Of a stretch of DNA of 35,752 bases, positions 22,712 through 28,425 are shown piece by piece. The stretch is from a virus. Lineage: Duplodnaviria > Caudoviricetes. The stretch is taken from the IMG/VR virus record IMGVR_UViG_3300044949_000822, positions 1-35,752 of that record. One strand, written 5' to 3'. The notes beneath the pieces were generated by a model. That model had not been told where the DNA came from. It did no database searches and saw only the letters and a list, made by a program, of their open reading frames with translations. Numbering within the stretch: the first letter of the stretch is position 1; every line of letters starts with the position of its first letter. Both the position numbers and the translations under genes were made by a program.

Positions 22712-23613
22712 TGGCAAAGTTCTGCTGGATGCCGCTGTATACGTCTGACTTGGTGAGCAGCTGCGTGGACATGACGCCACACCAGTTCGGGGCGTACGTT
22801 CGGCTGCTGTGCTACGCCTGGGACAACCACGGCCTGCCCAACGATGCGAACGCATGCGGACGCATTGCTGGCGGCATCGACCAGGCAGACTGGAAAGCCA
22901 TTCGTAGACGCCTTGAAGTTTTTGACGCTGGGACTGACAGGGAGCGACTAAGCCACCCACGCCTTGAGGCTGAGCGTGAAAAACAGGCACATTTGCACGA
23001 TTCTCGCTCTGAGGCAGGGAGAAGGGCAGCGAATAAGCGATGGCAAACGCAATGCGATGGCAATGCGGACGCATTAACAAAACCATGCCATCTAGAACCA
23101 GAACCAGAACCAAAGGTAGAAGTAATTACAGAACCAGAACCAAGAAAAGAACCCCATGCTGCGCATGGGGATGCTACGAGCGATCCGCCGAAGCGGCGGA
23201 AACGCTCGCAGCCGGCCTCTGTCGTTCTTTGGACGGCCGATGGCGGATGGGTGGGCATTCTGGACGCTGACCGCCACGAATGGGCCGTAGCGTTTCCTGG
23301 GGCCGTCGTTGAGCAAGAGCTTGCCAAGGCTACGGCCTGGCTTAAGGCAAACCCCAGCAAGGCGGGAAAGCGGAACTGGCGTGCCTTTGTCGTTCGGTGG
23401 CTGTCTCGCTGCCAGGACAAGGGCGGCACGAACCGGGATGCGTCAAAGCCGCTGCCTGTTCCGCAGGATCAGTCCAAGCGTCGGTTCTATCGCGGAGACG
23501 CCAACGAGCGTCTTACGGATGCGGAGTACGCCGCATGGAGGCGCGACCAAAGAACAGGCGGAACGGTGTCCGCGCTTGCACAGTCCATGAAACTCAAGGA
23601 GGAAGACCTATGA
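22711..23613 (+). CDS. DUF1376/YdaU-like replication initiator
   Basis: WMPLYTSD...MTPHQFGAYVRLLCYAW..GLP, HPRLEAE, EPEPEP linker, C-terminal WRAFVVRWL. Confidence 0.8.
   Translation: MAKFCWMPLYTSDLVSSCVDMTPHQFGAYVRLLCYAWDNHGLPNDANACGRIAGGIDQADWKAIRRRLEVFDAGTDRERLSHPRLEAEREKQAHLHDSRSEAGRRAANKRWQTQCDGNADALTKPCHLEPEPEPKVEVITEPEPRKEPHAAHGDATSDPPKRRKRSQPASVVLWTADGGWVGILDADRHEWAVAFPGAVVEQELAKATAWLKANPSKAGKRNWRAFVVRWLSRCQDKGGTNRDASKPLPVPQDQSKRRFYRGDANERLTDAEYAAWRRDQRTGGTVSALAQSMKLKEEDL
23094..23153 (+). repeat. AGAACC x6 short direct repeats inside the initiator gene
   Basis: Copies at 23094, 23100, 23106, 23130, 23136 and 23148 in an A-rich patch. Confidence 0.6.
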
Positions 23614-25341: not shown

Positions 25342-25743
25342 GTGAGGAATCGGACTTACGACTACGCGGAAGTGCGTCGCCTGTATGACTCTGCCGTAAC
25401 GGTTGACGAAATCGCTGACCGCATCGGCGCTGCTCGCTCCACTGTCTGGCGGATTCTCAATGGGCATAAGCCAGCCAGTGGGGCGCAGGCCAAGAAGGTT
25501 GATCGTGAGGTGCTGCTGAGGTTGTGGCAGCAAAATCTGACGCTTGAGGAGATTGGCCTAACCATCGGGTGCTCTGGCTCAACCGCTGGAATGCTGGCCA
25601 GGCAGCACGGGATGCCGCCGCGAGAGTCTGCCAGGAAGATGCAGCTGCCAGACCCGACGCCAGACGAGATTGCCGTAAGAGCACGCGAGTGCAGAGAGCG
25701 GCACTACGCTGAGAGACGGCGAGAACAGGGAGGGCTGGCGTGA
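25342..25743 (+). CDS. Tandem HTH protein
   Basis: Two HTH-like units, TVDEIADRIGAARSTVWRIL and TLEEIGLTIGCSGST. Confidence 0.72.
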   Translation: MRNRTYDYAEVRRLYDSAVTVDEIADRIGAARSTVWRILNGHKPASGAQAKKVDREVLLRLWQQNLTLEEIGLTIGCSGSTAGMLARQHGMPPRESARKMQLPDPTPDEIAVRARECRERHYAERRREQGGLA

Positions 25744-25746
25744 GCG

Positions 25747-25835
25747 AGAGAACACGGAAGATCAGCGGCTCCCGGCCACTGACGTAGAATCACCAAAAGG
25801 CGGCACCGGGAGTCCGCTGCATCCGTTGGTTCTCA
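25747..25835 (-). repeat. attC-like site 1 (89 bp)
   Basis: Minus strand: TGAGAAC-CAACG-GATGCAGC...GCTGATC-TTCCGT-GTTCTCT. Confidence 0.85.
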
Positions 25836-25847
25836 CAGGAGAAAAAG

Positions 25848-25970
25848 ATGAGCTCTTGGAATGCGCAGTATTTGCTCGGAGTCGTGATTGGTTCGGTTCT
25901 GGTTTCGGTCGTTTCGTGTGCCGTTAGGCTGCTGATTCACAGGGGCCGACCTAAATCATGTCGTATGTGA
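25848..25970 (+). CDS. 40-aa membrane peptide in cassette 1 (below the ORF-track cut-off)
   Basis: AGGAG RBS; MSSWNAQYLLGVVIGSVLVSVVSCAVRLLIHRGRPKSCRM. Confidence 0.55.
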   Translation: MSSWNAQYLLGVVIGSVLVSVVSCAVRLLIHRGRPKSCRM

Positions 25971-26206
25971 TACGAAAAATGCCCAACGAAATGCCTTGGT
26001 ATGCGTGGTTTTCCCTTGCCGTGCTCATCCCGGCGTCGTTCTTTGGGTCGGCTTGGTTGATGCACTGGGCAACAGGAGCTGACCCGCTGGTTGAGGAGAT
26101 ATGGCGGCTGCGTGGGCAGAACTCGGTGCTGCGGGAGCGGCTTGAGCAACTGGAGGGCGAGCGGCGGCGCGATTCCGAGACGCTTCGCAAGGTGATCGGG
26201 AAGTGA
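25958..26206 (+). CDS. Membrane-anchored coiled-coil protein in cassette 1
   Basis: Transmembrane segment then heptad-rich tail; stop lies in the core box of attC2. Confidence 0.65.
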   Translation: MSYVIRKMPNEMPWYAWFSLAVLIPASFFGSAWLMHWATGADPLVEEIWRLRGQNSVLRERLEQLEGERRRDSETLRKVIGK

Positions 26207-26292
26207 GAACGCTAAGGATCAGCGGCAGCGATGAAAGGACTCACCATGCGTAAGGACGATGCAACGCTGTCCGCTGCATCCGTTGGTTAGGC
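26204..26292 (-). repeat. attC-like site 2 (89 bp)
   Basis: Minus strand: GCCTAAC-CAACG-GATGCAGC...GCTGATC-CTTAGC-GTTCTCA. Confidence 0.85.
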
Positions 26293-26747
26293 ATCTCATG
26301 GCTGACTTTGACAACAACCGATTCCAAAGCAAAAGCGTTGAGTGGGCAACGCCGCAACAACTATTTGCCGTGCTAAATGACGAGTTTGGCTTTACGCTTG
26401 ACGTTGCCGCGAGCCGCGAAAATGCAAAATGCGGCCGATACTTCACGGCAGAGAATGATGCGCTGCGGCAGGATTGGGACGGAACGTGCTGGATGAATCC
26501 TCCATACGGAAGGGAGGTTCCGAGGTGGTTGGAGAAAGCCATCGCGGAATCAAAGCGTGGCGTCACGACTGTGTGCCTGATACCAGCGAGGACAAACACG
26601 GGTTGGTTTCACGAGTTGTGTTTTCGCCAGGGCGAAGTTCGTTTTGTGCGAGGTCGCCCAAAGTTTGGGGACGCCGACCACGGGCTGCCATTTCCGCTGG
26701 CGGTTGTGATCTATCGGCCGAGATACCAGACGGTTCAGATCGCCTAA
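26259..26747 (+). CDS. dam: Phage DNA N6-adenine methyltransferase, cassette 2 (start 26259 within attC2, or 26298)
   Basis: EWATP, FTLDVAA, DALRQDW, WMNPPY, LIPARTNT.WF, RGRPKFG. Confidence 0.9.
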   Translation: MQRCPLHPLVRHLMADFDNNRFQSKSVEWATPQQLFAVLNDEFGFTLDVAASRENAKCGRYFTAENDALRQDWDGTCWMNPPYGREVPRWLEKAIAESKRGVTTVCLIPARTNTGWFHELCFRQGEVRFVRGRPKFGDADHGLPFPLAVVIYRPRYQTVQIA

Positions 26748-26830
26748 CACGGAAGATCAACGGCGGCCGCCGCAGGACTCACCATGACACATGACGAAGC
26801 AGGGCCGTCCGTTGCATCGGCTGGTTATGC
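26742..26830 (-). repeat. attC-like site 3 (89 bp)
   Basis: Minus strand: GCATAAC-CAGCC-GATGCAAC...GTTGATC-TTCCGT-GTTAGGC, with a compensatory G-C to A-T change in the L arms. Confidence 0.87.
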
Positions 26831-27359
26831 CGCGTACCGCTGCATCTTGATTGACCCTCCGTGGCCACAAGGGATGACAGGAAGCCGGAAGCGAGCGAAA
26901 GGCGGATCGCCTCCCGAGTTGCCATATCCGACTATGACGCTAGAGCAGATGATTCGACTTCCGGTGAAAGCACTGGGGGCTGACGACTCCCACTTGTGGC
27001 TCTGGACAACGAACCAGTTTCTTGAGGATGGGTTTATCCTCATGCGGGCGTGGGGCTTCAAGTACCTTGCGGCCGTTCACGCGATCAAGCCAAGCGGAAT
27101 CGGAAACTACTTCATCAGCAGGACGCAAACGCTGCTGTTTGGCTACAAGCACAAGTGCCGGTTCCCGCTGGAGCGATACAAGCCAAACGTGATCGAAGTA
27201 CCAGACCCGCCTCGACACAGTGCGAAGTGGGACGAGACATACGACTACATCGAGGCGATCTCGCCTGGGCCAAGGCTGGAACTGTTTGCCCGGCGGAAGC
27301 GGCCGGGGTGGGACGTTTGGGGCAACGAGGTTTCTTCGGATATTGACCTAGTGGCATAA
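26784..27359 (+). CDS. MT-A70-family adenine methyltransferase, cassette 3
   Basis: ILIDPPW, YPTMT, HLWLWTTN, AWGFKY, HSAK, RLELFAR..RPGWDVWGNE. Confidence 0.92.
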   Translation: MTHDEAGPSVASAGYAAYRCILIDPPWPQGMTGSRKRAKGGSPPELPYPTMTLEQMIRLPVKALGADDSHLWLWTTNQFLEDGFILMRAWGFKYLAAVHAIKPSGIGNYFISRTQTLLFGYKHKCRFPLERYKPNVIEVPDPPRHSAKWDETYDYIEAISPGPRLELFARRKRPGWDVWGNEVSSDIDLVA

Positions 27360-27443
27360 CGCCAGAGATCAGCGGCCCGCGACCGCTGACGAAACTACAA
27401 CCAGACGGCGGCATCGCGGGCCCGCTGCATCGCGTGGTTAGCT
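27354..27443 (-). repeat. attC-like site 4 (90 bp)
   Basis: Minus strand: AGCTAAC-CACGC-GATGCAGC...GCTGATC-TCTGGC-GTTATGC. Confidence 0.87.
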
Positions 27444-27448
27444 GTCGC

Positions 27449-27853
27449 ATGAGAGACGAAGAAGAATCGAAGGAAAACTTTGCTGCAGAAGCCGAGTACG
27501 TAGCCGAACTGGAGAAACGAGCCAAAGAGGCAGTCCTCCAGGCGAAGGTGCTGATCGGCATGCGAGACGAGGCGTGCAAGAACATGGTGGAGCGGCGGAT
27601 TTACGACATCGCAGGAGACTTCCCGTCTCGCTCAAAACCGGTTGAGTGCGTGTTTCATTTTGCGGAGGGCGACGAAGAAGTTCGGATTGAAGATGTTCGG
27701 CTTCCGTGGCGGTACGGCGGTGGAGAGGCGTTGCACTTTAGGTCGCCAGTGGTGGTTTATCGCTCTAAGCTAAAGAGCGGGAAGTGGTCAAAGACGGTGG
27801 CCGAAGTGGACGCGATGTGGGCAATCACGCAGATTGAAAAGTACACCAGCTAA
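27449..27853 (+). CDS. Hypothetical protein, cassette 4 (start 27434 or 27449)
   Basis: Fills the cassette; TAA stop is part of the CAGCTAAC core. Confidence 0.7.
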   Translation: MRDEEESKENFAAEAEYVAELEKRAKEAVLQAKVLIGMRDEACKNMVERRIYDIAGDFPSRSKPVECVFHFAEGDEEVRIEDVRLPWRYGGGEALHFRSPVVVYRSKLKSGKWSKTVAEVDAMWAITQIEKYTS

Positions 27854-27984
27854 CCAGTAAGTATGCGGACCCGTATATCCGCCACCGCTGGCCATATATC
27901 TCCAAGCCGTCAGCGCCGTGCAGCCGCTAGCCGCAAGCTTGTCGCGCTAACGCGGATTATCTGCCGCATATCTCGCAGTCGTGT
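27848..27984 (-). repeat. Degenerate attC or attI-like primary site at the head of the array
   Basis: Minus strand: ACACGAC-TGCGA-GATATGCG...CGCATAC-TTACTG-GTTAGCT; spacing kept but AAC is replaced by GAC. Confidence 0.5.
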
Positions 27985-28070
27985 CACGCCCCGCGACACG
28001 ATGGCTGAACGTATGTCAAAAGCGACGAAAAGCGACCGCTTTTGCATACAAGTGGGGCGGCCCTGATTCC

Positions 28071-28128: not shown

Positions 28129-28425
28129 ATGCGTTTCGTTTTGCTTCTCGCCGCCCTGGCGTTCGCTTCCGTTGCCAGCGCCGATACCACCGTGGTGGCT
28201 CGTCGTGGCTCTGTCATCAGTGCCCAGGATCACGCCGTCGTGATCGCTCGCCGTGGCTCGCTTGTGCATTCCAGCTGCGGCCAGTACGAGGGCATTGGCA
28301 CCGGCTCAACGCCTGAGCAGGCCCGGCGCAACTGCTGCTTCTTCGGGAAGCGCGTCATCGTTGAGGAAGGCGTGGCCTACTCGCCCGTGGCTCGTCGCTG
28401 GTTCGCGGTCATCCGCTATCGGTGA
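28129..28425 (+). CDS. Small secreted Cys-containing protein
   Basis: AGGAGG RBS; signal peptide MRFVLLLAALAFASVASA; repeated V(V/I)ARRGS; NCCF motif. Confidence 0.75.
   Translation: MRFVLLLAALAFASVASADTTVVARRGSVISAQDHAVVIARRGSLVHSSCGQYEGIGTGSTPEQARRNCCFFGKRVIVEEGVAYSPVARRWFAVIRYR

Follow-up and report, generated by a model that had tools for sequence, protein, structure and literature searches.

A probable mirror-image integron cassette array in a likely temperate lake phage

Integron cassettes are taken as oriented for expression from a promoter at attI. In the phage genome IMGVR_UViG_3300044949_000822 a short array of attC-like sites separates genes that all face the other way, and the locus raises the question whether such an array can be an integron in mirror image, to which gene each site belongs and which enzyme would move the cassettes. 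The window, as the term is used here, is the whole analysed stretch of 35,752 nucleotides. Here we present a description of the array, a comparison with related phage and bacterial loci, and a reading which we hold with a probability of roughly 0.7 on comparative grounds: a mirror-image integron array in a likely temperate phage, probably shuffled by an integron integrase (IntI) of the host acting in trans.

The gene content of the window is that of a nearly complete tailed-phage genome, with genes for terminase, portal, capsid, tail, a tyrosine recombinase, an excisionase-like protein, a Bet/RecT-like protein, a replication protein and a beta clamp. All runs listed as containing the stretch (24 of 24) are lake water metagenomes. 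The phage is likely temperate, since it encodes a tyrosine recombinase. Neither an attP nor a tRNA was found for it, an Rfam search of the window gave no match, and GenBank phages gave matches to the methyltransferases only, the attC sites being matched nowhere among them. The array follows an HTH gene, and genes for RusA and a glycosyltransferase follow the array. The bases behind the HTH gene up to 25752 are likely the far half of the original insertion core; in five relatives the stop of the HTH gene is followed directly by a CAGAAC or CACAAC core and the first attC site. Elsewhere in the window, positions 23094-23153 within the replication gene carry six copies of AGAACC, which may represent a Glu-Pro linker or else a repeat of origin type. 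Positions 28008-28045, beyond the attI-like site on its right, form an inverted repeat in which a single base is unpaired, and 27976-28069 is missing from some relatives and from one contig of run X9.

A reading made from the sequence alone had claimed that the attC layout is found on the minus strand only, with all cargo on the plus strand. A scan of the whole window for AAC, 5 nt, an 8-nt L'', a 7-nt L', 6 nt and GTT gave four matches on the minus strand and none on the plus strand. Shuffled windows gave a mean of 0.47 matches on both strands, with a maximum of 4 in 100 shuffles; unlike the shuffle matches, the four real sites fall within 1.7 kb and have common sequence. A covariance model trained on 26 host-integron attC sites, with intI and the direction of the genes used to orient them, recovered all four on the minus strand (46.0-57.7 bits, E 3e-10 to 2e-13), its best match on the plus strand reaching 11 bits. 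Layout scan and host-trained model thus bear out the claim at 4 of 4 sites, and the outcome that the sequence-only reading had named as speaking against it, a better score on the plus strand, did not occur (at most 11 against 46-58 bits).

When the plus strand is folded, AAC lies on the left arm and the extrahelical bases lie on the right arm, 6 bp apart. The bottom-strand geometry given in the available text of PMC5027507 has unpaired bases opposite the AAC arm and separated by 6 bp, the usual order being G then T. The window sites depart from it in showing C then T (sites 1-3) or C then G (site 4), so that the first extrahelical base is C and not G and, in site 4, G replaces the conserved T. 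Host sites of the same attC family also have C on the bottom strand, the top-strand G being nearly invariant. The folding energies (plus minus minus: -0.3, +0.3, +0.4 and -1.3 kcal/mol for sites 1-4) do not separate the strands and were rejected as a criterion of polarity. Folding both strands, as had been suggested, was informative in placing the extrahelical bases on the plus strand and uninformative in its energies. With at least two attC sites and no intI nearby the array falls under the definition of a CALIN. We regard it as a real CALIN with a predicted attI-like site, which would work like an integron and is not a complete one.

Table 1. Positions of the array, its cassettes and selected neighbouring genes in the window
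Feature	Position	Strand	Remarks
Tyrosine recombinase, 313 aa	17424..18365	-	ordinary phage type; divergent from excisionase-like gene
HTH-type backbone gene	25342..25743	+	PHROG HTH/repressor matches; adjoins left end of array
attC1	25747..25835	-	AAC to GTT 25751-25831; 52.7 bits; predicted crossover AA/C 25752/25753
Cassette 1, 457 nt	25753..26209	+	own attC at left end; ends GTTCTCAC/GTGAGAAC complementary over 8 nt
ORFs of cassette 1	25848-25970; 25958-26206	+	40 aa, AGGAG before ATG; 82 aa; without family match
attC2	26204..26292	-	AAC to GTT 26208-26288; 51.8 bits
Cassette 2, 538 nt	26210..26747	+	ends complementary over 7 nt
Dam-type N6-adenine methyltransferase (cassette 2)	26298-26747	+	PF05869, E 2.7e-31
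attC3	26742..26830	-	AAC to GTT 26746-26826; 46 bits
Cassette 3, 612 nt	26748..27359	+	ends complementary over 8 nt
MT-A70 family methyltransferase (cassette 3)	26784-27359	+	PF05063, E 1.7e-21
attC4	27354..27443	-	AAC to GTT 27358-27439; 57.7 bits
Cassette 4, 494 nt	27360..27853	+	134-139 aa protein, no known family; ends complementary over 8 nt
attI-like entry site	27848..27900	-	core, crossover 27853/27854; 6-nt spacer; L-like box 27861-27867
Direct repeats of attI-like site	27873-27879, 27894-27900	-	two copies

None of the four cassettes (0/4) has its gene in the canonical place, upstream of its own attC on the top strand. Protection against host restriction is the likely role of the two methyltransferases, and cassette 4 is likely the newest because it adjoins the attI-like site. 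A homologous 3' part of cassette 1 abuts the attI-like site in the related contig L264. The two ends of one cassette are complementary over at least 7 nt in 80% of 201 viral cassettes, as against 15% of shuffled pairs; since such complementarity fits either polarity, polarity was tested separately. Otherwise unrelated viral cassettes were seen to have common 3' modules, the last 16 nt being common in 25 of 246, with LTDxER in 23 and THWM in 13, hinting at new cassettes through middle swaps between conserved ends. One cassette protein (L267:5319-5726) matches the integrase-labelled PHROG phrog_95 in its C-terminal part.

Polarity was read from what travels with what. Among 25 homologous cassette families found in differing contexts, the left site was kept while the right neighbour changed in 16, and the right site was kept with a changed left side in none; the remaining nine, in which both flanks differ, are uninformative on polarity and point to site bodies also being swapped via some other route. 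In a separate comparison of pairs attC travelled with the gene on its right in 11 of 12, and in P0001 site 4 and cassette 4 stand together behind another left neighbour. The right end of the array is fixed: in 11 close relatives homology of the right flank begins exactly at AAC 27852, with differing cassettes to its left, and in a twelfth it begins at 27849. From 58 distinct phage array ends a conserved non-attC consensus was obtained, and under a profile of the 54 other ends 27852 ranks first of the 945 AAC positions of the window (22.1 vs 5.9). Host integrons have attI and intI on the same side of the attC sites as the phage attI-like end. Six host attI candidates, scored with the phage profile, took ranks 1, 1, 3, 3, 50 and 159 in their loci, and the one at 159 is itself weak as a candidate; the likeness is good in two to four of the six, and activity of the phage site is predicted from sequence.

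Metagenomes were checked in four runs, at the level of contigs. One contig of the independent run X10 passes from 25750 straight to 27358; under minus polarity the 1607 nt left out exactly equal the summed lengths of cassettes 1-3 (457+538+612). This is a single contig with a shorter side of 39 letters, and another cassette with a like site could explain the joint. Run X1, possibly the sample from which the window came, contains two other cassette ends before 27852. A joint in run X11 leading back 457 nt (26204 to 25748) was considered as a circle of cassette 1 and set aside, as a linear array with a like site fits equally. A fully empty allele was not found in the relatives or in scans for the attI pattern, and one match of that pattern (L040/G039), which has no array, was dropped from the evidence as a chance match. 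Taken together, the travel test, P0001, the fixed AAC, the end profile, the side used in host integrons and the X10 and X1 contigs assign each attC to the gene on its right and place the predicted entry point at the right end of the array. As the sequences show, a cassette opens with its attC at the 5' end of the gene, carries the gene on the attC bottom strand, and closes with a core of 7-8 nt that is complementary to the cassette's own start. Arrays were also seen at other places: in L021:1915-3515 an array with its attI-like site stands directly behind a phage tyrosine recombinase gene, and in L280-L295 and L322 arrays stand behind a homologue of window 28129-28425, so that the entry site is present at several genome positions.

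The inverted layout is not confined to the window; dozens of related phage contigs have it. A search with the site pattern gave at least 128 viral loci and at least 132 genome loci, the latter, among the matches listed, mostly from Planctomycetota, with cyanobacteria and others. Orientation was called with a codon model on segments between sites of at least 55 nt; shorter sites enter the counts of sites given further below. Among the matches listed, 72 of 90 viral segments were confidently inverted, none canonical and 18 undecided, while 71 of 134 bacterial segments of the same attC family were canonical, 4 inverted and 59 undecided. Two of the four inverted bacterial segments lie on one 3.3-kb bin contig with phage-type sites, and the other two look like toxin-antitoxin genes. 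The viral loci partly overlap and come from related lake phages, so these counts are not independent events. On the inverted strand 15 of 109 representative frames had PHROG matches, which do not depend on the codon model, and on the other strand 0 of 109 had one; the matches comprise seven methyltransferases, one PAPS reductase, one HNH protein, one integrase-labelled protein and five without known function. A tblastn search of 177 viral cassette frames against a small host sample of 147 segments gave no match. The sequence-only reading had proposed a dedicated class of reverse-oriented cassettes in a pool associated with phages, and had suggested a look at gene orientation in host arrays; the proposal agrees with the viral (72:0) and host (71:4) calls, with the 15:0 PHROG ratio and with the tblastn result, and arrays with Planctomycetota-type attC are indeed canonical, 71 to 4.

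Homologues of the MT-A70 gene occur in inverted cassettes of L359, L361 and L402, whose attC families are unlike the Planctomycetota type, so that the mirror layout spans other host lineages. The same MT-A70 family is found as plain phage genes in L358, L360 and L364-L366; its occurrence in both forms suggests that phage genes have been turned into cassettes more than once. One host array (L172) contains many 149-nt cassettes that are almost identical and lack a clear gene.

The stop codons of the cassettes fall close to the recombination core. Of 161 viral cassettes, 151 place the stop in their final 12 nt, all four of the window among them. It had been read from the window that stops are built from the core and end at the predicted crossover. 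This holds for cassettes 2, 3 and 4, whose TAA at 26745, 27357 and 27851 ends at AA/C, but was over-read as a general mark: TAA/C accounts for 27 of the 161 viral stops, next to TGA-GAAC with 47 and TAG six bases before AAC with 43, and in cassette 1 the TGA at 26204-26206 lies in the 7-nt core, off the crossover. Neither is it distinctive, as 16 of 61 canonical host cassettes, among the matches listed, have TAA in the R'' core; a stop in the core is common to ordinary cassettes and reflects tight packing.

Translation starts within the sites set the phage cassettes apart from the bacterial ones. An ATG within the site with a frame open for at least 40 codons past it was found in 157 of 210 long viral sites vs 7 of 178 bacterial sites, and such an ATG with a Shine-Dalgarno-like motif in 135 of the 210 vs 2 of the 178. 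In the loop of attC3, AGGA precedes the ATG at 26784, in frame with the MT-A70 gene, and the site encodes the first 14-15 residues. The loop of attC2 likewise carries AGGA and ATG on the plus strand; the short ORF runs to a TAG within the R'' core, and the ATG of the methyltransferase gene follows some 10 nt later. No start of this kind is present in sites 1 and 4. Sites of at most 50 nt from AAC to GTT make up 56 of 271 viral vs 1 of 178 bacterial sites, and a start immediately downstream is seen in 34 of the 53 viral sites that form a second, short class (AAC to GTT, 41-50 nt). Examples of attC of 49-51 nt, including both 7-nt cores, are L003, L007, L010, L012, L029, L271, L292 and others. 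At 49-50 nt the short viral sites are below the attC minimum of 57 nt quoted in the part of PMC5027507 at hand. Two things add to the first reading: the translation starts within attC, and the attI-like site at 27852.

The enzyme is the part of the reading at which a rival fares best. The window recombinase has no match to TIGR02249 and, aligned with four host IntI, lacks the IntI insertion; no IntI above the cut-off was found in 31 related phage records. As neither the phage nor these records encode one, a host IntI would act in trans. IntI is present in 6 of 10 Planctomycetota genomes, and the host is probably a member of this phylum. A phage marker searched against 251 genomes gave one weak protein match and no prophage relative, and the phage attI pattern was found in none of 301 genomes. 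The same anatomy could be served by the phage's own tyrosine recombinase in place of a host IntI, which we consider unlikely. One ordinary enzyme of this kind is encoded in each of 25 of 30 phage records, mostly distant from the array with the exception of L021, where the array follows it directly, and no attP was found for it. Against it stand the absent IntI insertion, the distance of its gene from the array (7.4 kb), the divergent arrangement of that gene with an excisionase-like one, and the sites themselves, which retain the host attC sequence and the unpaired bases. Moreover, the phage G033 (100% complete) has inverted cassettes with another attC family and no tyrosine recombinase match. 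The window recombinase is likely a lysogeny integrase outside the array system.

Quite improbable, too, is that the sites are relics of an old integron which now serve homologous recombination by RecT/Bet, with little or no present action of an integrase. The phage encodes a Bet/RecT-like protein, both sides differ in the nine uninformative families, the common 3' modules would fit such exchange, and half sites and fused genes occur in some relatives. Homologous recombination does not account as well for the two ends of each cassette remaining complementary, for junctions exactly at AAC where the non-repeated attI-like site offers only 3 nt of homology, or for the 16 to 0 asymmetry of the travelling site.

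That the genes are canonical after all, the plus strand being the top strand with the unpaired bases merely on the other arm, might be read from the TAAC stops, which resemble an ordinary R'' stop, and from the like folding energies, but is hardly credible, being already contradicted by the left site travelling with the gene, besides which the host-trained model favours the minus strand, cassette 4 would be left without an attC, and the X10 joint switches the site body at the left AAC. Equally hard to credit is a chance capture of rare inverted host cassettes at a secondary site of the attG type: integrases insert cassettes at many GWT sites, according to the available text of 10.1101/2022.09.11.507474, and the four inverted bacterial segments are precedents, but the entry site is conserved over 58 phage array ends, the cargo is of phage type without a match to host segments, and the translation starts within phage sites are lacking in host sites.

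Under the mirror-image reading with a host enzyme, host IntI would excise cassettes as circles and insert them at 27852-27854. The entry site would be the far end of a rightward operon of replication genes, probably early, and an entry there would append new genes last. The array would be read by upstream phage transcription, with no Pc promoter. Read-through from phage genes is a plausible interpretation consistent with the co-orientation of the flanking genes (75 of 77 to the left and 69 of 72 to the right). The cassette genes face attI, so that a Pc promoter at the attI side could not express them; a promoter consensus scan found none there, though the scan is a weak one, with 1 match in 12 kb vs 2.5 expected. 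The newest cassettes would come at the end of the message, opposite to the order under the Pc model, and, according to the accessible portion of PMC11511950, cassette position may matter less than translation. Many cassettes would bring their own translation start within the attC loop, and the stop of the previous gene at the foot of the next hairpin would allow coupled translation along the array. Cassettes at the left end may lose their attC and become fixed genes. A gene with the core end of a cassette, without attC and fused behind an HTH gene, is found in L262 (5217-5725), L266 and L271, and is likely a domesticated cassette; in L262 it lies directly against the attI-like site.

As to the benefit of the inversion, the available texts of PMC5371416 and PMC8946536 state that a bottom strand recombines more when it lies on the lagging-strand template. 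We speculate that the inversion leaves the genes co-directional with transcription while the recombining strand would be the coding strand and the lagging template of a rightward fork; for genes co-directional with such a fork only the inverted layout puts the bottom strand on that template.

In its widest form the reading states that temperate lake phages run a mirror integron of their own, with a phage attI where an operon ends, a phage-only pool, attC sites that serve as ribosome binding site or N-terminus or are shortened to about 49 nt, a host IntI acting in trans, and cassettes born in phages from ordinary phage genes; we incline to this form by a little. A large phage population would then reverse gene direction, start signal and order of expression, and phages seem to use an enzyme of host stress adaptation to renew their accessory genes, methyltransferases included. 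How integron cassettes arise is, to our knowledge, an open question. With MT-A70 genes both as plain genes and in cassettes, and with attC-less remnants at left ends, both ends of the cassette life cycle become testable, and, if the reading is true, the birth of cassettes and their later domestication could be watched directly in phage genomes.

The literature searched, in which subscription journals were thinly covered, contained no paper on systematically inverted phage cassettes, and the available parts of PMC8618304, PMC13323075 and 10.1101/2022.09.11.507474 do not describe a mirror layout of cassettes; the 'inverted integrase integron' of PMC13323075 refers there to the direction of intI. 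Closest are the phage-borne CALINs of Qi et al. 2023 (PMC9892861), which in the accessible main text resemble the window in having attC clusters without intI and methyltransferase cargo. There phage attC sites were recombined on the bottom strand by IntI1 in an assay, and the main examples are described as having the structure typical of bacterial arrays. Systematic gene inversion, starts within attC and a conserved phage attI-like end do not appear in that main text, whose figures and supplements could contain inverted cases.

The supply of a ribosome start by the recombination site recalls ORF-11 and ORF-17 of attI1 and the short ORFs in attC, as far as covered by the available text of PMC8876359. 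The short ORF of site 2 is like ORF-11 of attI1 in that its stop, a TAG in the core, closely precedes the true gene. The phage start differs from ORF-11 and ORF-17 in its place within the loop of attC and on the opposite strand, in being owned by the cassette and in usually forming the N-terminus of the protein. With insertion at attG, as treated in the part of 10.1101/2022.09.11.507474 at hand, the phage array would have in common an integrase acting in trans outside an integron and the possible loss of attC and domestication; attG is a short GWT motif, whereas the phage entry site is conserved, has an L-like box and repeats, and would be used repeatedly. The sedentary chromosomal integrons of Planctomycetota (L186, L485-L490) have the same attC family and the same entry side as the window, and a partly similar attI. 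In these integrons the gene lies upstream of attC on the top strand with intI adjacent, whereas in the phage it lies on the bottom strand behind attC, without intI.
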